Origin: Anaerolineales bacterium
GTDB lineage: Bacteria > Chloroflexota > Anaerolineae > Anaerolineales > RBG-16-64-43
DNA: 64,000 nucleotides
Direction: 5' to 3'
NCBI GenBank assembly: GCA_049516595.1
Contig: JBEKSY010000011.1
Span: 25,063 to 89,062 of the forward strand
Under the pieces are notes generated by a model, which worked only from the letters and a program-made list of their open reading frames with translations, made no database searches and was not told the DNA's origin. This document shows, piece by piece, positions 8,919 to 33,247 of this stretch; the stretch's first letter is position 1; every line of letters begins with the position of its first letter. Made by a program: the position numbers and the translations under genes.

Positions 8919-9420
8919 TCATTCTTGGGTGTTCTCCTCCCGGTCTTCACGCACGAACCCGCGCGGCCGCACGAGGCTCAGGATCGGCCGGGCGGATTGC
9001 TCGGGAGAGGTTTGAACGGTGTCGCGCGCGATCTCTGGAGACCCGGGCGGCTCAATGGGATCATCGATCCCCGTGAACCTCGTAATCTCCCCGCGCCGTG
9101 CCTTGGCGTACATCTCCTGGGTGTCGCGCGTTCCCAGGACCAAGGAGGCCGTGGCCTCGTGGTCCCATCCGCAGATCTCCTCCAACCGCAGGATCGCCAG
9201 CGGCTCGTTCTTCGAATTGCGCAGCGCAATCTCCGCGCCCAGGCCAGAATCAGGGCCCCCCCAGTCCCCAGAGCCGACTGGACAGAGGTTGCCTGATCAT
9301 ACCGGATCGCCCCTTTCCTCGAAAAGGAGGAAGGATGCCGTGCTGAGGGGCGGCGAGAATTGCACGTTCCAGCCACGAACTCCCATCCGGCCAAGCCCGG
9401 CGGGGAAGTCTCGAAAGCAA
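8919..9420 (-). pseudogene. Remnant of a second sulfate adenylyltransferase/APS kinase gene (internal in-frame deletion plus in-frame stop)
   Basis: The translation …[38 protein letters not shown]|[30 protein letters not shown]… joins the N-terminal and C-terminal ends of the intact protein at 10674..12422. There is an in-frame TGA at 9297..9299. DNA similarity to 10790-10894 and 12009-12140 is visible. The upstream boundary is approximate. Confidence 0.7.
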
Positions 9421-9899
9421 GCAGCATGTGCAGGCGGGAACTCCGCTCCTTCTCCGGGGCCGTCTGAAAGGGGGCTGGGCCGAGTCGGTCCTCGGCTGCC
9501 GCGGAGAAGGTGCAGGCCGGGGCAATCGCCGCCGGCGCCGACCCCGGCTTGGCCTATGAGCCCGGCTCCGTCCGGCGCCCGGCGGTTACGGCTCTGCGAG
9601 GCTGGGGGTGCGCGGTCTGCGGAAGGCCGAACCCTTACACCGGGGAACCATTTTTGAGGGAAGGGGGATAGCTGCCCACTCGGCGGAACCGGCCAGGCGA
9701 CGGAAGCCGCTTCAGGAGCAGGAGCCGGGCAGAGTTGGGCCAAGCCCGCGCCCGCCTTACTCGGGCTCACCACGATGGCACTCGCTCTTGGTTCGTGCAG
9801 CAGGGCCCCCGCGCTCGTTCCCGCCGTGAGCCCGGCGGTCCCGGCCACCCTTCCCGCAAGCGCAAGGGTGTGGACGGTGCCGTCCAGATCCGCGCCTCC

Positions 9900-10595
9900 C
9901 TACGAACTCTCCGACATTGCCAGGCGCAGGGCCTCTCTCCATGGAGGCAGCCTTACGCCAAAGGCTTCCTCCGCTCGCTGGCAGTCCAGCACCGAATAGG
10001 CGGGCCTTTCGGCCGGGGTCGGGAAGTCGCTGTGCCGCGCGGGCTGGATCTCGCGCACGCGATGCTCCTGCGCCCGCGGATCGCAGCCCAGGATCTCGCG
10101 GGCCCACCCCAGCCGGCCGTCCACGAGCGGCCAGTCGATTCCCAGCCGCGGGTCATTCCAGAGCAGTGTCCGTTCGGAGGCCGGGTCATAGATCTCGGTC
10201 ACTTTGTACAGCACGTCAGCGAACTCGCTGAGGACGTAGAACCCGTGGGCGAAACCCGGTGGAACCCACACCTGGCGCCGGTTGTCATCCGATAGGGGCG
10301 CACCGGCCCAGCAACCGAAGGCCGCGGAACTTCGTCGCAGGTCGACCGCCACGTCGAATACCTCGCCCCGCACCACTCGCACCAGCTTCCCCTGCGGGTG
10401 GCGAATCTGGTAGTGCAACCCGCGCAGCACGCCCTGGCGTGATCCGGAATGGTTGTCCTGAACAAAGGTCGCCGGCACGCCGAGCGCCGCGAACCGCGCG
10501 GCGTTGTAGGTTTCCAAGAAGAAGCCGCGCTCGTCCTCGTGCACGTCGGGATCAAGCAGCAAGACCCCCGGCAACTCCGTGGGCTGGATCTTCAC
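9900..10595 (-). CDS. rmlC: dTDP-4-dehydrorhamnose 3,5-epimerase fused in frame to the C-terminal ~70 aa of dTDP-4-dehydrorhamnose reductase
   Basis: RmlC core: ERGFFLETY…RGLHYQ…VPPGFAHGF…DPRLGIDWPL. The tail GWAREIL…FPTPAERPAYSVLDCQRAEEAFGVRLPPWREAL is the conserved RmlD C-terminus. No Rossmann N-terminus of RmlD is present. Confidence 0.8.
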   Translation of the reverse strand: MKIQPTELPGVLLLDPDVHEDERGFFLETYNAARFAALGVPATFVQDNHSGSRQGVLRGLHYQIRHPQGKLVRVVRGEVFDVAVDLRRSSAAFGCWAGAPLSDDNRRQVWVPPGFAHGFYVLSEFADVLYKVTEIYDPASERTLLWNDPRLGIDWPLVDGRLGWAREILGCDPRAQEHRVREIQPARHSDFPTPAERPAYSVLDCQRAEEAFGVRLPPWREALRLAMSESS

Positions 10596-10673
10596 CGCGG
10601 CATCCCTCCCTCGGGAAATGCCTCATCGGCCACCGCCCGCTTTGCTGTCCGGACCGGCGCCTTTTGCGCCGGA

Positions 10674-12545
<1,872 letters not shown>

Positions 12546-13235
12546 TCATAACCGTGGTCTTCGATCCAAATCCGGCTCAGGCCCCACGGTCAATTCGGCG
12601 ATGGGCCAGTATTCATCCCCGCTCGCAGCTACAAGGGCCTGACTCCCATGCACAAACATTTGCCGTCGCGGTAGATTGAACACGAGGGAGATCGCCAAGC
12701 TGAAGGCCGAGGCGATCCGCCTTTCTGTCCAGCGCACTGGGGATGTTCCCCGATCCACAGATCCGAAATCCAAGACAATCGACTGCCCCGATCGTTTCAA
12801 TGGCCATGCCACTTCCGAGACCCAAAGGGATAAGGTGACGACCGGAAGGAAGTCGGGCGTGAAATGGACGAGGCCTGCAATGAGAGCGATCCCCTAGGGC
12901 ACGATGACCACTGAGAGGGACCGCCAGCCGTGCCTGTCCGCAGCGGCTCAAACCGCGGAGGCTTACCCACTGCAGGATTGCGTATCCGGGAAGCCGGCCG
13001 CCCGCACAAGAAACAACAAGAAACAACGGCCCATAGGCCATTCCCGCATTCCTGGTCTCACACCCCTGGGACAAGAAGGAGTTTCAACACGGACTTGATC
13101 CAGCCCCACATGGTGATGAGATCATGGCTCCGCCCCGGCTGGGCCAAATAGAACGCGGCAACGCCCCAGGTCAGGGCGACGAAAGCCAAGCTGCCAAGCT
13201 CGGCCTCAGCGCGTCTCCATCTGGAGGACCTTCCA

Positions 13236-15188
13236 TTACCTTCGTTTGAAGACCGTGACACCCCCATCGGAAGCCACCTCCTGGAATTCTGGGTCCTCTG
13301 TCGTCATCGTGAATTCTGGCTTGCCCTTCACAGCAATCACATACTCGACCCCGCTGTGATCTAGATCCTCTTGCCATTCGTGCGGATCCGAGGCGCGAAA
13401 TGCGACCACACGATTCCTGAGGTCCGCGCCGTACAAAGGGTATATGAATCGCACCAGTCCTCCATAGGCGATCGTAGCGGGGCTTACGCTAGTTTCCTTC
13501 TCAAGGTACAGAAACGCTTTCCGCCCGACCCAAACAAAATCGGCGCTGGATCGACTTCGATCGTCTCGCCAGGCTACATAATCCCTGAGTACTCTGGGGG
13601 TGACTTGGGCGAGATCCATCGTGAGGAACACCGAGAGGGCCGCCATCGCCAACAATAGGATCGTGGTGGCATGTCGGGCAAAAGGCCGCAGGCGATCTAG
13701 TAGCCAGCCGATGGCCAGTGCCCCGAGCAGAAGGACCGGGACGCTGTACCTGGGCACCCAGAATGCCGGCGTGGCCAGGAGAGCGAGAAAGGTCAGAACA
13801 CATAGCAGCAACTGCAACCATTGGCGACGCAGGATAATGGAAACGAGCCATGCCGCCAAAGCGGGTACGCCCAGGATAATCCAAAGGGGGCCGAGACCAG
13901 CCAGGAATTCGTCCTCAAGGCTTCCCGTCTTCTCCAGCCAGGTCGTCGCCAAGCGCTCTGGGATGGGCATAGCCAGCAGCTGGGGAGAGGAATTATTCGC
14001 GATGAATTGATCCAGGCCCGTCTGCCCCTGGAAAACCACGTGACCGAGCAATGACACCTCATACGGCGCAATTGGATTTCGAAACACATACAGGTTGCGC
14101 AAGTAGGGATACGCGCCCAGGGCGATTACGGCGACCAGCGCCGGGCCGACGACCCGGGGTGCCCCCCAGGCCCACCCCCTCCCCCCGGCGGAGGCAACCG
14201 TCCCCTTCAAGCTGCCGAGCCACCATCCCAGGAGAAGCAACCCGAGCGCCAGAGAATAGAAGAGGCCGGTATATTTGGCCCCCGCCAGGATACCCGCCGC
14301 GAGGCCGACCTCGAGGCCAACGATCGCAGGCTTGGCCTTGACATCGAAAGCATGCGACGCTCCAAAGAGCAGGTACACGCCCATTGCAAAAATCGAGGCC
14401 ATAAAGGCGTCAACATGGGAACTGACTTGTTGGAGGACCATGGTCGGCGCAAAGGCAAAGATACAAGCACCCGCAAGGGCGGCATCTCGACTTGCTCCCC
14501 ACCGGCGGGACAATCCATATACGGCAAGCGCCCCAGTCACAATCGCCGGCAGCGAGGGGATGTCGACCAACTTGTCGACGCCCAGGAAGAGCAAGTTCCA
14601 AAGCGACAGCAACTCGACATTGAATGGATAGGCCCGTACCCATATCACGAGGCTCGAAAACGGCCGGATGGCATGGGCCTGGTAGATTTCGGCCATGATC
14701 GGCAAATGGAAGACCAGAGCATCCCACTCCCGGGGTGCCAAGAAGAAACCCTCGAAGGCACTTCTAAGTAGCACCAGAAGGTAGAGTCCCAAGACCGCCC
14801 TGCCGAAAAGCGAAAGCCTAATGGTCCTCACCTGCGAGAGCAGTTGGCGCTGTGCCTCGATCACCCGACCCCATTTGGGCACCACGCGGGTCAACAAAAC
14901 GATGCCGGTCGCTACCAGGTTAACTCCAATCACGACGGGCGCGTAAAGCAGCCCGATCAGGCCGAGGCCGAGTTCGCTGAGAATGATTTGCGCAATCGTC
15001 ATTAGCATGGAGGCCACCATGGCATATGGCGCAGAGCGGCAGAATCCACAGAGCGCCAGGTACCAGGCAGCCCATATCAAGCCTGTGATCGCGACCAGGG
15101 CGGCCATGCCCAACCACGTGTTCAGGCCGCTCCCCAACAATCCACCATGACGAATTGCACTGAGCATTCCAAGCAGCCACTGTTGCAT
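13236..15188 (-). CDS. Polytopic membrane protein, GT-C-like (ArnT/PMT/O-antigen-polymerase-like); function uncertain
   Basis: 650 aa with many hydrophobic spans and a soluble C-terminal domain of about 130 aa. The loop motif REWDALVFHLP resembles GT-C first-loop acidic motifs. Family assignment is by eye only. Confidence 0.5.
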   Translation of the reverse strand: MQQWLLGMLSAIRHGGLLGSGLNTWLGMAALVAITGLIWAAWYLALCGFCRSAPYAMVASMLMTIAQIILSELGLGLIGLLYAPVVIGVNLVATGIVLLTRVVPKWGRVIEAQRQLLSQVRTIRLSLFGRAVLGLYLLVLLRSAFEGFFLAPREWDALVFHLPIMAEIYQAHAIRPFSSLVIWVRAYPFNVELLSLWNLLFLGVDKLVDIPSLPAIVTGALAVYGLSRRWGASRDAALAGACIFAFAPTMVLQQVSSHVDAFMASIFAMGVYLLFGASHAFDVKAKPAIVGLEVGLAAGILAGAKYTGLFYSLALGLLLLGWWLGSLKGTVASAGGRGWAWGAPRVVGPALVAVIALGAYPYLRNLYVFRNPIAPYEVSLLGHVVFQGQTGLDQFIANNSSPQLLAMPIPERLATTWLEKTGSLEDEFLAGLGPLWIILGVPALAAWLVSIILRRQWLQLLLCVLTFLALLATPAFWVPRYSVPVLLLGALAIGWLLDRLRPFARHATTILLLAMAALSVFLTMDLAQVTPRVLRDYVAWRDDRSRSSADFVWVGRKAFLYLEKETSVSPATIAYGGLVRFIYPLYGADLRNRVVAFRASDPHEWQEDLDHSGVEYVIAVKGKPEFTMTTEDPEFQEVASDGGVTVFKRR

Positions 15189-28935: not shown

Positions 28936-29023
28936 AGCGGGAGCTACTCAAACCCAGCCGGGGGCCAGGCAGATCGGCTCCCGGTGGTCGGCGCTGGATG
29001 GGCGGGACTCACCCGTGCGATTG

Positions 29024-29041
29024 GGTAGTGGGTCAGTTTGA
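29024..29041. repeat. Left terminal inverted repeat core of the IS1-like element
   Basis: Exact reverse complement of 32273..32290. Confidence 0.85.
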
Positions 29042-29878
29042 CTTTTCTAGATTTACGATCTCCTCCAATGTCCACGGCCTAGCGGCCAAGCCCGCGGCCA
29101 TCGCCGGGGTGGTGATGCGGCCCTTGATCGCTTTGGTCAAGCTCTGGTGCGGGCGGGCGAAGTTGGAGTGCATGAAGTGGGGCGCAACGGCGGGAGTCAG
29201 GTTCTCGACCTTCTTCGAGAACCCGTTGGTGAGCCGAGTGAGGCGCCGCATGCTCATTCGCATCGTGAGGTTTTGGCGTTCCACGAAGCGGGTTGAGATA
29301 TGGGCTGGGTCGGGGTTGCCCTGGACAACTTCGGTCCTGGTCCCAATGCACTTTGCTGGACTGTAGTGCCTCTGGCCTTCGTCTGATGCTCCGTATAGCT
29401 TCTGAAGCATGGCGTAGTCAATCTCCGACCCAAATGCCTCTTTCACTGCATCAAGATAGGCAAAGTGGCTGTCTGTGGTCAGTTGCACCCGGTTTGAAAG
29501 CCGCCCCGCAAGATCGTCAATGAACGCCCAAGCCGTGTCCCTGTCCCGGTCGCCGATCATGAAGGAAAGGGGCAACTTCGTCTCCGCGTCAAGGGCTGTC
29601 CAGGTCCAAACGTCGCCATATCCGAACACGCCCTGCTTCTCAGGGGGAAGATTCTTCTGCTTGGCATAGCAGAATGACCAAATCTCGTCGCACGGAACGC
29701 GCTTGCAGGCGGGGTCTCTGATCGCCCGGCCTTGGTACTCCGCGCAACCTTCCCCCACGCGAACCAGCAGGCCGACAACGGTATTCTTCGACGCCCCGGT
29801 TATCCGCCTGGTTGCCCGGATGCTGTTTCCCTCGACCAGACACCCAATGACATTAGCGCGCTCGCTCAGCCTATTCAT
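29033..29878 (-). CDS. IS1-family transposase (single-ORF, HTH + DDE)
   Basis: DEIWSFCYAKQKN…DVWTWTALD…LTTDSHFAYL…TRFVERQNLTMRMSMRRLTRLTNGFSKKVENL parallels IS1 InsB (DE.W…TD…Y…IER.NL.LR…RL.R…FSKS.E.H). Confidence 0.85.
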   Translation of the reverse strand: MNRLSERANVIGCLVEGNSIRATRRITGASKNTVVGLLVRVGEGCAEYQGRAIRDPACKRVPCDEIWSFCYAKQKNLPPEKQGVFGYGDVWTWTALDAETKLPLSFMIGDRDRDTAWAFIDDLAGRLSNRVQLTTDSHFAYLDAVKEAFGSEIDYAMLQKLYGASDEGQRHYSPAKCIGTRTEVVQGNPDPAHISTRFVERQNLTMRMSMRRLTRLTNGFSKKVENLTPAVAPHFMHSNFARPHQSLTKAIKGRITTPAMAAGLAARPWTLEEIVNLEKSN

Positions 29879-29982
29879 GAAACTATTATACTTGACCGCT
29901 CAAGCAATATCAATAGTGACTTTTACACTTCCTGTAAAACTGGTATTGGGTATACCTCAATGCCGTGGTATGCTATGGCCGC

Positions 29983-30279
29983 ATGGAATTCGAATTCGGG
30001 GAGGGCGACTCGGAAGAGGCTTACTACGACCCCAAGGCCTCACTCAGGCATGGCCCTGCGGTTGACAAGGGATTCAGAAAGGTAATGGGAAAGATAGATG
30101 CGGCCAATGACGAGCAAGATCTTCGAGCGCTGAAAGGTTTGCACTATCACAAATTGGAGGGAAATCGAAGTCACCAGCACGCCCTAAACGTCACTGACCA
30201 ATGGAGACTTGTCGTAGAGCGCATTGAGGAAAAGGGACGGACGAGGCTGCTAATTGTCTCGCTTGAGGACTACCACTAA
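29983..30279 (+). CDS. higB: HigB-like toxin (RelE/ParE superfamily, plasmid maintenance system killer type)
   Basis: …DLRALKGLHYHKLEGNRSHQHALNVTDQWRLVVERIE…LEDYH fits the HigB-like pattern (L.G.R.G..S.R.ND.WR…DYH). Its stop TAA overlaps the next ATG (TAATG). Confidence 0.75.
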   Translation: MEFEFGEGDSEEAYYDPKASLRHGPAVDKGFRKVMGKIDAANDEQDLRALKGLHYHKLEGNRSHQHALNVTDQWRLVVERIEEKGRTRLLIVSLEDYH

Positions 30280-31430
30280 TGGCTAAGGAGGAACCCATGG
30301 GAGATCGAAGGCCGGCAGAGGTCTTTCATCCGGGCGAACACCTGCTCGATGAATTGGAGGCGCGCGGCTGGACGCAGACCGAGTTCGCCGAGATCATCGG
30401 TCGCCCTCTTCGGCTTGTGAATGAAATCATCAATGGGAAGAGGGGGATTACCCCCGAAACCGCCAGGGAATTCGCTGCTGCACTGGGGACTAGCGCAGAG
30501 TTCTGGATGAACCTGGATTCAGCCTACCATCTGTGGAAGGCGAGAGAGGATGTTTCTCCAATCGAGCATCGGGCCAGAATGCGAAGCCAGTATCCCGTTC
30601 GCGATATGGCCCTTCGAGGGTGGATTCGTCCCTCCGAGGATGCTCAGGTAATGGAAAGTCAATTGCTCAGGTTCTTTGAAGTGGGTTCTCTGGCGGACCA
30701 ACCAAAGTACGCGCACACGGCTGCCCCGAGGCGCTCCGACGCCGAGGGTGCAGGAATGAGCCCAATTCAGATGGCTTGGTTGTACAGGGTAAAGCATATT
30801 GCCGACACCATGCAGGTCCCGCGGTATTCCGCTAAGGGATTGAGGGCCGCCCTGGAGCCATTGAAAGCCTATAGGGAGGCCCCGGAGGAAATCCGACACA
30901 TTCCGAGGTTGCTAGCACAGAATGGGGTGTGCCTTGTCATTGTAGAGCCATTGCCTTCCTCCAAGATTGACGGTGTTTGCTTGTGGCTCGACAATTCTCC
31001 GGTAATAGGCTTGTCCCTTAGGTTTGATCGGATCGACAACTTCTGGTTTGTGCTGCGACATGAAATCGAACACATTCTCAACCGAGACGGGAGGGACTCG
31101 GCAATAGTAGATTCTGAGGTCTTCGAAGAGTCGGGAGCGAAGGATTTGCCACCCCAGGAGAATGCGGCAAATGCGGCAGCGGCGGAATTCTGCGTTCCCC
31201 AACAGGAGCTCAGTGACTTCATGCTGGGTGGGGGACCGCTCTTCTCGCGCAAGCGAGTAGTAGCCTTCGCGAGGAGTCTGGGACTTCATCCAGGGCTAGT
31301 TGTGGGGCAGCTTCAGCGCCGGACTGAGCGCTATGATTTGTTTCGTCAGATGCTTGTGCCCATTCGAAGCACGATCACACCTGTAGCGATGACGGACGGG
31401 TACGGTCACGCCTGCCCAGTCCTGGTCTGA
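30279..31430 (+). CDS. HigA-type HTH antitoxin fused to an ImmA/IrrE-family (COG2856) metallopeptidase domain
   Basis: N-terminus HPGEHLLDELEARGWTQTEFAEIIGRPLRLVNEIINGKRGITPETAREFAAALGTSAEFWMNL is the HigA/VapI HTH. HExxH motif LRHEIEHIL is encoded at 31059..31073. Confidence 0.8.
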   Translation: MAKEEPMGDRRPAEVFHPGEHLLDELEARGWTQTEFAEIIGRPLRLVNEIINGKRGITPETAREFAAALGTSAEFWMNLDSAYHLWKAREDVSPIEHRARMRSQYPVRDMALRGWIRPSEDAQVMESQLLRFFEVGSLADQPKYAHTAAPRRSDAEGAGMSPIQMAWLYRVKHIADTMQVPRYSAKGLRAALEPLKAYREAPEEIRHIPRLLAQNGVCLVIVEPLPSSKIDGVCLWLDNSPVIGLSLRFDRIDNFWFVLRHEIEHILNRDGRDSAIVDSEVFEESGAKDLPPQENAANAAAAEFCVPQQELSDFMLGGGPLFSRKRVVAFARSLGLHPGLVVGQLQRRTERYDLFRQMLVPIRSTITPVAMTDGYGHACPVLV

Positions 31431-31451
31431 GGCTGGGAAGGAGTACATCCG

Positions 31452-31963
31452 ATGGCCGACTATGCGAAGCAATTGCAGCGGATTGTGAGAGAATACCGCC
31501 AGGACGGTCAGGAATGGCCCGCCAGCACAAAGGAGATTGCCCGGTGGGTTATCAGAACCCACAGGTATGATCTCCGAGCCCCGGCGATTGAGAAGATACT
31601 CGCCCGAGACATGCGCAAGCCATGCGTGAAGAGTACCTCACCGACTCGAGGGGCAGGCGCGTTTGTGCGAAGCATCCGGCAGAGGTAAGGCGTGGCTGTG
31701 AGCAGACAATGCTATGGAACGATATTCGCACGGCGCCACGCAGTCATATGGCAATGGCCTTTCAGTTGCGCCGAAATCACATCGTAGAAGAATGCCGTCA
31801 GACAAAGGCTGACGTGGACAGCTACAACGATTTGCACCCCAGCGAGCAGCCAATCCAAATGGTGTTGGATTTCACCAGAGATGTCGAGGAACTGGAGGTA
31901 CTTGAGAGGTTGAATGAGATTGAGGAGGAGGGGGCGTTCGAGGAAATCGATGCGGTCGCCTAG
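31452..31963 (+). pseudogene. Hypothetical gene split into two overlapping frames (31452..31688 and 31622..31963)
   Basis: Frame 1 ends …ILARDMRKPCVKS…, while frame 2 begins MREEYLTDSRGRRV… at 31622. A single-nucleotide indel near 31620 would give one ORF of about 170 aa. No family was recognised. Confidence 0.4.
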
Positions 31964-32229
31964 TCACTTTTCTTCCAGCGTGCTCTCGCAGCAATCCTTG
32001 CGATTTCCTGGCGGCGCTTGGCCGACAGCTTCGCAGCCCTAGCCTTTCCGCCCTTCTTCCCTCCCAGACGACCTAGCGCCTGCGCGTGGGGGTTTTTCCT
32101 CTCCTCGGTGGGCTCGGCCTCGTCCGCGATTGGCCTTTCTGGCTCAGGCGGAGCCTCCTCCGCCACGATCTCCGCGGCCAAGACGTTCGGATCATCCCTT
32201 GGGCGCTTCTTGCTTGAACGCTTTGGCAT
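31960..32229 (-). CDS. Small basic protein, hypothetical
   Basis: 89-aa ORF with an acidic middle and a Lys/Arg-rich C-terminus: GRLGGKKGGKARAAKLSAKRRQEIARIAARARWKK. It lies inside the IS1-like element. Confidence 0.45.
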   Translation of the reverse strand: MPKRSSKKRPRDDPNVLAAEIVAEEAPPEPERPIADEAEPTEERKNPHAQALGRLGGKKGGKARAAKLSAKRRQEIARIAARARWKKSD

Positions 32230-32272
32230 GCGCCTACTCTAGCCCGAACGCCGCGTCAAGGCAAGCGCCGAT

Positions 32273-32290
32273 TCAAACTGACCCACTACC
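32273..32290. repeat. Right terminal inverted repeat core of the IS1-like element
   Basis: Exact reverse complement of 29024..29041. Confidence 0.85.
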
Positions 32291-32437
32291 TCCAATTGCC
32301 ATTCCGCACGCCGCCTCGACGCGTTGGGGACGGTGCGGCCGGGTGATCCCACCCATGCCGAGAGGGGGCCGGCGGGGAGGCCAGCGGCGGGCTCTCCCAC
32401 CGGGCGGTCGGCTGTGTGCCCCGGATCAGGAGATTTG

Positions 32438-33247
32438 ATGGAGATCCTGTGTTTCGTTGCCCATCCCGACGATGAAACCGTGTTCTTTGGCGGAACCATG
32501 GCGCTCCTCGCGCAGGGCGGGGTGGCGGTGCACGTGGTCAGCGCAACCCGAGGCGAGGGGGGAGAAGCCGGCGAGCCGCCCGTCTGCGCTCGCAGCGAGC
32601 TGGGCTCCGTGCGGGAGAGGGAGATGCGCTGTGCCGTCGAAGCTCTGGGCGCCCGCTCCCTGTCGTTCCTCGGATACCGCGACCCCGAGATGAAAAGCAG
32701 CGAGGAGTTCTTCCCATTCACCGACCATCCGGAGGAGGCGGCGGAAAGGCTGGCCGCCCTCTTGCGCGTCCACAGGGTTTCGGCGGTTGTCACCCACGGC
32801 TCGACCGGGGAGTATGGGCACCCGGCCCACCAGCTGGCCCACCAAGTGGCGCGCCTTGCGGTGGAGCGGGTGGCGAGTGGACCCGCGCTCTACGGGTTCA
32901 GCGCCTTCTTCCCCGCGCACCCTCGCCCGCGCCTGAGCAACGCCCAGGACCCGGCGGACTTCGTCCTGGATTTGGGTCCCGTCTGGGAGCATAAACTGGC
33001 CGCGGCGCGATGCTATGTCACCCAGGCGCCGGTCTTCGTCCGCCGCATTTCCCGCGAGCGCGGATACCCGGTGCCTCTGGAACAGGCTTTGATGCCCCGG
33101 GAGTCCCTCCATCGCTTCCTTCCCGGTCCCCTGGCGCGAGAGCAGGTGGGCGGAGAGCCGGGAGGGGATCCGCTGGCCGACTGGATCGAGGAGAACCTGC
33201 GCGACTCCCTGGTCATTCCCCAGGGCGGGACGACGGCGGCAGGCTGA
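32438..33247 (+). CDS. PIG-L/LmbE-family N-acetylglucosaminyl deacetylase
   Basis: MEILCFVAHPDDETVFFGGTMA… (AHPDDE motif) and …HGSTGEYGHPAH. ATG 32438 follows CAGGAG. Confidence 0.85.
   Translation: MEILCFVAHPDDETVFFGGTMALLAQGGVAVHVVSATRGEGGEAGEPPVCARSELGSVREREMRCAVEALGARSLSFLGYRDPEMKSSEEFFPFTDHPEEAAERLAALLRVHRVSAVVTHGSTGEYGHPAHQLAHQVARLAVERVASGPALYGFSAFFPAHPRPRLSNAQDPADFVLDLGPVWEHKLAAARCYVTQAPVFVRRISRERGYPVPLEQALMPRESLHRFLPGPLAREQVGGEPGGDPLADWIEENLRDSLVIPQGGTTAAG

Follow-up and report, generated by a model that had tools for sequence, protein, structure and literature searches.

How much DNA belongs to a mobile element whose IS1-type transposase gene lies between two inverted repeats together with several genes of other kinds? 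This question is raised by a locus of an Anaerolineales bacterium (Chloroflexota), a lineage from the SPRUCE peat site. In the window, which is the whole analysed stretch of 64,000 nucleotides (64 kb) of contig JBEKSY010000011.1, an element of 3,267 bp (29024..32290, core genes on the minus strand) is inserted between the gene of an MFS transporter and the gene of a PIG-L/LmbE-type deacetylase. Its limits are given by exact 18-nt inverted repeats and by homologous units elsewhere. An initial annotation, made from the sequence alone, had described an IS1-family transposase with its stop codon inside the left repeat, within a 3.3-kb unit bounded by inverted repeats and loaded with a passenger of the toxin-antitoxin (TA) type. 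This description was upheld. The feature is very likely one copy of a transporter insertion sequence (transporter IS, tIS) from a large IS1-related clade, in which the whole unit would be mobile; the copy in the window would be old.

The observed element bounded by inverted repeats is real, and its description is correct in every material point. The terminal inverted repeat at the transposase end (29024..29041, plus strand) reads GGTAGTGGGTCAGTTTGA and holds the stop codon of the transposase gene. The repeat at the other end, close to the small gene orfA (32273..32290, minus strand), is its exact complement over 18 nt. These are the only two matches to the 18-nt repeat in the window at up to three mismatches, where shuffled sequence gives an expectation of 0, and the same search found no second copy of the element there. 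Both tips read GGTAGTG, which fits the form GGnnnTG with which terminal repeats of the IS1 family begin in the ISfinder description. The interior had been called AT-richer than the flanks, and this is borne out by a GC content of 0.50-0.60 inside the element versus 0.65-0.71 in the flanks; the lowering is uniform across the 3.3 kb. The gene of the PIG-L/LmbE-type deacetylase begins at 32438, at a distance of 147 bp from the right repeat's tip. Its adjacency had been recognized correctly, the distance of about 130 bp given for it had not.

The evidence for the mobility of the whole unit comes from relatives. The main set consists of 80 metagenome loci with transposases 57-63% identical to that of the window. 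Complete elements were obtained in 46 cases, 43 from the metagenome loci and three from the close relatives L153, L154 and L157. The further copies with the same ends, for which the initial annotation had suggested to search, were found in metagenomes, two alphaproteobacterial plasmids and viral contigs: about 50 relatives with transposases 50-81% identical share the repeat GGTAGTGGGTCAGTTTGA. Nearly all of the 80 metagenome loci hold this 18-mer, with one copy at the transposase stop or past it and a second copy upstream of the transposase start, at a distance of 0.7-3.3 kb. The 46 complete elements span 1,885-6,374 bp, and perfect 8-bp direct repeats abut the GG tips in almost all of them. 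The 18-bp end consensus of 47 elements is the repeat of the window, with GGTAGTG invariant. A repeat directly upstream of the transposase was not found in any relative examined, nor was a transposase-bearing version of about 0.9 kb seen among them. In the window, the region near the transposase start (29880-29960) contains a promoter-like site and no match to the repeat at up to three mismatches. Because the same repeat pairs and 8-bp duplications surround long units in the relatives, the whole unit appears to be mobile; by these comparisons the repeat-to-repeat unit, including the extra genes, is what transposes. The match at 32273..32290 is consequently not a solo repeat, since in about 50 relatives this pair of repeats encloses the whole unit, with perfect 8-bp duplications. 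Relatives with the passenger genes at this site and without the transposase were not found in exact-protein look-ups. As every complete relative found carries extra genes, the unusualness claimed for the window element was overstated.

Single relatives show how the unit behaves. The transposase of L153 is 81% identical to that of the window, and the two elements have the same gene order and align along their full 3.3 kb at 73% nucleotide identity. L153 lies among unrelated genes, for a transaldolase on one side and an ABC transporter on the other, and is flanked by the perfect duplication GCAAGGAT. The presence of the same gene set at another site implies that the cargo-loaded lineage inserted at two sites at least and diverged as a unit. 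In L154-156 (transposase 78% identical) the ends, orfA and the transposase are kept, and the cargo is an 888-aa type IIG restriction-modification enzyme within an element of 4,384 bp (duplication CGCATCCG). The element of L157 (77%) has a length of 2,405 bp and carries a 245-aa gene without known identity. The Mesorhizobium loti plasmid CP050295.1 contains an element of 3,370 bp with the identical repeat and the duplication CGCTGGTG, and an Acidiphilium multivorum plasmid contains one of 2,634 bp with the duplication AAGCCGAG. Viral contigs of IMG/VR hold the exact 18-mer as well, in no fewer than 120 stretches.

Three further observations concern the anatomy of the relatives. IMG/VR viral contigs also contain miniatures of 290-1,128 bp (L171 373-662; L218 5677-6179; L173 4334-4949; L182 4011-5138), which have the 18-bp ends and perfect 8-bp duplications and are too short for a transposase of about 280 aa. 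In this they resemble MITEs (miniature transposable elements with inverted repeats). Extra copies of the repeat lie beside complete elements in L035 (98-115, minus strand, next to 124-2008) and in L175 (4873-4890 and 4907-4924), which hints at insertions side by side or nested in one another, or at solo ends. In L079 (830-7203, 6.4 kb) and L071 (273-4746, 4.5 kb) a module of HigB-like gene, helix-turn-helix (HTH)-M78 gene and third gene is located upstream of the transposase and further genes downstream of it, so cargo can flank the transposase on either side.

The transposase itself is encoded by a single open reading frame (ORF; 29033..29878, minus strand) of 281 aa, with an N-terminal HTH and the DDE residues D64, D136 and E200. 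Its TGA stop codon occupies positions 29033-29035. Pfam PF03400 is matched with 28 bits (cut-off 24.1), the aligned profile positions being 84-125 only. The best-scoring IS family model is the NCBIfam equivalog NF033558 (transpos_IS1), whereas the IS6 and IS481 models reach about 18 bits. The transposase lacks the zinc-finger region, since it aligns to the NCBIfam model only from position 46 onward. By BLASTP, residues 194-236 align to residues 117-161 of InsB from IS1A (46 aa, 41% identity, E = 4e-6); they form the ERxNLxxR...FSK segment, to which the catalytic E belongs. Residues 10-35 weakly resemble the HTH of InsA. D64, D136 and E200 are invariant in an alignment of 20 sequences (the window transposase and 19 homologues). 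At least 8,000 homologues exist, and where they are named at all JGI and NCBI call them IS1 family transposase. The transposase can thus be assigned to the IS1 type by its predicted DDE catalytic domain. Four substitutions distinguish the window protein at positions invariant in the other 19 sequences (G137S, S197R, F213L and Y238S), compared to 0-2 changes at otherwise invariant positions in most homologues. G137S adjoins the catalytic D136, and S197R is near E200.

An AT-rich spacer of 104 bp separates the transposase start from the divergent HigB-like gene. Within it lies a putative sigma-70-like promoter (29885..29913, minus strand; TTGATA-17-TATAAT), which points into the transposase ORF; its assignment is a consensus match only, at 11 of 12 positions. 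The spacer with this promoter-like site is common to both genes, a layout which allows divergent regulation.

The relation to classical IS1 is one of catalytic core and ends, not of overall architecture. IS1A of E. coli (NC_000913.3 19796-20563) resembles the window element in the DDE motif ERxNLxxRxxxxRLxRxxxxFSK, in the HTH of InsA, in tips of the form GGTnnTG (GGTGATG and GGTAATG in IS1A) and in an InsB stop codon inside the terminal repeat. The target duplications of IS1 are 8-9 bp long. In contrast to the window element, IS1A has only 768 bp, is passenger-free and encodes InsA plus an InsAB' frameshift fusion with a zinc finger. The window element has a single transposase ORF without the zinc-finger region, a separate orfA which is unrelated, and a distal repeat 2.4 kb away from the transposase start. 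It therefore has neither the size of a classical IS1 (about 0.7-1.2 kb without passengers, against 3,267 bp with three passenger genes) nor the insA/insB' layout with its programmed -1 frameshift. Catalytic domain and end sequence, together with the 8-bp duplication that is perfect in the relatives, support a putative membership in the IS1 family. ISfinder presumably has IS1 subgroups named 'single ORF' and 'ISMhu11', whose members reach about 4.6 kb. In the literature searched, the clade, its invariant end and orfA were not described, 'ISMhu11' gave no match, and only the general tIS concept was found.

Transporter IS are said to have been defined by Siguier, Gagnevin and Chandler in 2009. 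In two publications (PMC3129680, PMC9330008), tIS of the IS1595 family and others are IS that carry passenger genes unrelated to transposition. The resemblance to the window element lies in an IS-type transposase and terminal repeats that enclose passengers, with a target duplication around the whole unit. Such an anatomy is present in the window together with a decayed duplication; the homologous units have perfect ones, and one of them carries the same cargo elsewhere.

The gene orfA (31960..32229, on the minus strand like the transposase) encodes a small basic protein of 89 aa and starts 61 bp inside the distal repeat. In the initial annotation it was counted as cargo. When the ORFs within the elements were all compared with one another, a single family was found to recur everywhere, and this is the orfA family. 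Its hidden Markov model (HMM) matches almost every complete relative; there the gene usually begins 40-60 bp inward of the transposase-distal repeat and lies on the transposase strand. The hallmark of the family is KNPxAVALGRLGGxKGGxARAxKLxxxxRxEIAxKAAxxRW. Between L154 and the window the orfA end and the transposase end diverge in step (72% and 78% nucleotide identity). By this recurrence orfA counts as a second, conserved core gene in the clade. Its location and conservation suggest that it is probably a DNA-binding accessory or regulator of the element.

Database searches say little about this protein. Its homologues, at least 8,000, are 'hypothetical' where they are named and have neither a functional name nor a Pfam domain; orfA itself gave no Pfam, NCBIfam or PADLOC match. 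A weak PHROG match was obtained to phrog_2384, a phage protein family without an assigned function, at whose N-terminus the motif is found. A Foldseek search of an orfA-family model against the PDB found nothing. The homologue at L167 3075-3284 (Mesorhizobium loti CP050295.1) is annotated as 'histone H1'. The motif GGxKGGxARA...RW was also observed within cargo proteins of 339-381 aa (L037 331-1473 and L060 496-1512, both on the minus strand), which is the behaviour of a portable module.

Between the two core genes three genes are located on the plus strand. Gene A (29983..30279) encodes a HigB-like protein of the RelE family with 98 aa, which matches Pfam PF05015 (32.7 bits, cut-off 27) and phrog_3066, 'toxin of TA system'. 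Its stop codon overlaps the start of gene B (30279..31430), whose product of 383 aa combines an Xre/HigA-type HTH with an M78 (ImmA/IrrE) peptidase (Pfam HTH_3 and Peptidase_M78). Gene B passes the TIGR02607 HigA model (61.4 bits) and matches the PADLOC model PD-Lambda-2_B with E = 1.2e-42 (144.6 bits, profile positions 58-387 of 402). Gene C (31452..31963) is split into the frames 31452-31688 and 31622-31963 by a 1-nt frameshift near 31614-31621. The frameshift, which was judged against the ORFs of L153, L071 and L079, is common to every assembly of the lineage. Gene C, the split hypothetical gene of the initial annotation, has uninterrupted homologues in L153 (170 aa), L016, L071, L078, L079 and L086, with 158-205 aa in one ORF. 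No PADLOC, Pfam or PHROG family was matched by gene C, intact homologues included.

A co-oriented gene C is kept together with gene B in seven elements. B plus C is the commonest cargo, with 6 of the 46 complete relatives and in addition the element of Mesorhizobium loti CP050295.1, which has no HigB-like gene; the latter gene accompanies B and C in some elements only. The remaining cargo of the clade comprises DNA methyltransferases, a type II restriction-modification pair, GmrSD, Fic/SoFic, STAND/AAA ATPases, RmrA-like HTH-peptidases, ClpP-like proteases, NYN, MazF/PemK, HicB and DUF3800 proteins.

The gene order of the window cargo is that of PD-lambda-2, a system discovered in E. coli through a functional selection (Vassallo et al. 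2022, PMC9519451). PD-lambda-2 consists of a HigB-like protein, a HigA-like HTH-peptidase fusion and a third protein (PMC9519451). The fusion protein is toxic and is, unexpectedly, neutralised by the HigB-like protein; the system protects from phages by abortive infection, and the third protein (C) is required against lambda-vir (PMC9519451). The window shares the order A-B-C and the match of gene B to the PADLOC model. It differs in that A and C have no PADLOC match, that C is frameshifted, and that some relatives carry B and C only. A canonical HigB/HigA pair joins a small toxin of the RelE fold to a small HTH antitoxin of about 100 aa, in contrast to the 383-aa fusion of HTH and M78 domains encoded here. 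Gene order and the match of gene B mark the cargo as a PD-lambda-2-like toxin/defence module of three genes, which would act in defence or in addiction. The initial annotation had seen in it a TA pair: the HigB-like and HTH-M78 genes are indeed present, but they belong to a three-gene module with a frameshifted third gene, and their roles may be the reverse of those of HigB and HigA. By analogy to PD-lambda-2 gene B may be the toxic component and gene A its neutraliser. If the analogy holds, defence would have been lost through the frameshift in gene C, and a pair of toxic protein and neutraliser would remain. This A/B pair may persist because loss of the neutralising partner would be toxic.

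Type II TA pairs near the transposition genes are also known from transposons of the Tn3 family, for which a stabilisation of the element or its carrier was proposed. These transposons differ from the window element in transposase family and mechanism and are much larger, and the module in the window has three genes.

The octamers that abut the two GG tips in the window are TGCGATTG (29016..29023) on the left and TCCAATTG (32291..32298) on the right. They agree at 6 of 8 positions, whereas the relatives have perfect repeats at the same position. In L152, a variant of this locus with 98.2% identity, the octamers (TCCGATTG) agree at 7 of 8 positions, a value to be treated cautiously due to a noisy assembly. 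The flanking octamers fit a real duplication in decay. The initial annotation had reported further imperfect matches outward of the repeats and had recommended to look for 8-9 bp target duplications. The former are more plausibly a decayed 8-bp direct duplication; the latter are imperfect in the window and in L152 and perfect in nearly all relatives. An outward extension of the inverted repeats with a 2-nt gap had been considered for the same positions and was replaced by the decayed duplication after the 8-bp duplications of the relatives had been seen. In L152 (ERZ25039512 contig_62914) the HTH-M78 gene is broken into three ORFs and the transposase protein is 89% identical; assembly errors are possible there.

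In exact-protein look-ups the transposase was found in 12 contigs, the MFS transporter in 6 and the PIG-L deacetylase in 7; several samples contributed to these contigs. Wherever a contig extends into the MFS-PIG-L interval, it has the element in the same arrangement. These look-ups with the three proteins returned occupied sites only, and among the contigs with the exact proteins no other location of the window element was found. The nearest other GTDB species, L089 (Anaerolineales MAG SPRUCE 659), has an MFS transporter 85% identical. Between its MFS and PIG-L genes it contains 5.5 kb of envelope-type genes (9383-14948), namely a DUF2142 membrane protein, two methyltransferases and a GT2 glycosyltransferase. 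As other genes occupy the site in L089, the site is variable and a clean comparison before and after insertion, as suggested in the initial annotation, is impossible. The predicted junction before insertion would read ...CACCCGTGCG, one TCCRATTG and CCATTCCGCAC.... Taken together, the decayed duplication, the frameshifted third gene, the four transposase substitutions and the single site in all contigs without an empty one indicate that the window copy is probably an old, fixed and immobile insertion.

For the clade as a whole the following mechanism can be proposed. The core consists of two 18-bp repeats GGTAGTGGGTCAGTTTGA, the single-ORF transposase and orfA, with a variable cargo slot between the core genes. 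The transposase would bind both repeats and cut at the GG tips, and the whole repeat-to-repeat unit would then be inserted at an 8-bp staggered cut, which would give rise to the 8-bp duplication.

Several results weigh against the interpretation of the element as a tIS copy of an IS1-related clade with orfA as second core gene and a PD-lambda-2-like cargo. The transposase scores 46.7 bits with NF033558, below the curated cut-off of 100. A comparison of orfA with InsA by hhalign detected no relation (probability 0.06%), and the AlphaFold model of an orfA homologue is helical and of low confidence (mean pLDDT 69). Genes A and C match no PADLOC PD-Lambda-2 A or C model, gene A none at E <= 0.01. 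A 6/8 match of the octamers has a chance of about 0.004-0.01, so they may instead stem from recombination or adjacent deletion. The repeats have 0 changes in 36 nt while 2 of 8 positions of the duplication are mismatched, which sits badly with neutral decay alone; the ends may be under selection, gene conversion may have taken place, or one flank may be of non-standard origin. Finally, with neither a second copy nor an empty site, the transposition of the window element itself is deduced from its relatives.

Different explanations have to be compared with these data. If the transposase gene formed a conventional IS1-like IS of about 0.9 kb beside host genes, with 32273-32290 as an unrelated solo repeat, its size would be close to the 768 bp of classical IS1, and a weak gapped repeat resemblance at about 29909-29931 (score 17) could mark its end. 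That stretch is promoter-like, though, and has no repeat match at up to three mismatches near the transposase start; in the relatives no repeat lies directly upstream of the transposase and the distal repeat is always located beyond orfA, the 8-bp duplications flank the long unit, and GC is uniformly low across the 3.3 kb. The short element with a solo repeat was rejected on the repeat pairs and duplications of the relatives, and we regard it as extremely improbable. It is also very unlikely that orfA is a mere passenger outside the transposition machinery. Its lack of similarity to InsA or to known transposition proteins and the occurrence of its motif in the larger cargo proteins of L037 and L060 and in phrog_2384 would agree with a passenger, whereas a passenger would not be expected in almost every complete element despite full turnover of the other cargo, in a usual position on the transposase strand 40-60 bp inward of the distal repeat, with an orfA end that diverges together with the transposase end.

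The tIS in the window could also be still active, with the HigB/HigA-type pair as an addiction module that stabilises it, as the 'self-stabilising' element of the initial annotation would imply. The full-length transposase with intact DDE residues, the perfect repeats, the own promoter-like site and the intact genes A and B agree with this, as does the toxicity of PD-lambda-2 B unless A is present (PMC9519451). We consider an active element unlikely, as every contig of the lineage has it at a single site, no other copy is present in the 64 kb, the duplication is decayed and unusual substitutions, four in total, lie next to catalytic residues; TA stabilisation is moreover established for plasmids and would be extended to a chromosomal IS by analogy. 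Even chances are given to the view that the cargo primarily benefits the host as anti-phage abortive infection of the PD-lambda-2 type, and that this defence was lost here via the frameshift in gene C. The PADLOC match of gene B (E = 1e-42), the order A-B-C and the defence-rich cargo of the relatives (restriction-modification, GmrSD, Fic/SoFic, STAND ATPase, RmrA-like, MazF, HicB) point to anti-phage cargo, and the requirement of PD-lambda-2C for defence points to its loss (PMC9519451). Genes A and C without a PD-lambda-2 model match argue against the former, and the two halves of gene C, which could still function, against the latter. An old copy of a tIS, in which the whole unit once moved, remains the explanation we prefer for the locus.

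For the window this reading traces a 3.3-kb insert of low GC content, which lies between two genes of housekeeping type, to a transposon that was inserted long ago. The annotation changes in two respects: the 'hypothetical' small basic gene is one of the element's own, and the HigB/HigA-like pair forms part of a three-gene module. Transporter IS and defence genes on mobile elements are already known; possibly new are the description at the level of the family and the orfA protein. In dozens of copies from environmental DNA and plasmids the same ends and core genes bracket very different passengers, many of them defence or toxin genes. The clade is therefore a compact vehicle that moves such genes between phyla, and its 18-bp end, which is easy to search for, could serve to collect candidate defence genes. 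Only tentatively, and with more doubt than confidence, we suggest that the clade is a not yet described, IS1-derived cross-phylum 'cargo shuttle' with near-invariant ends, orfA as accessory, a slot of fast turnover preferentially filled with defence and toxin modules, MITE-like derivatives and a frequent presence on viral contigs. If this is true, orfA would represent a novel type of cofactor for transposition, and the family would be a useful marker for new defence genes.

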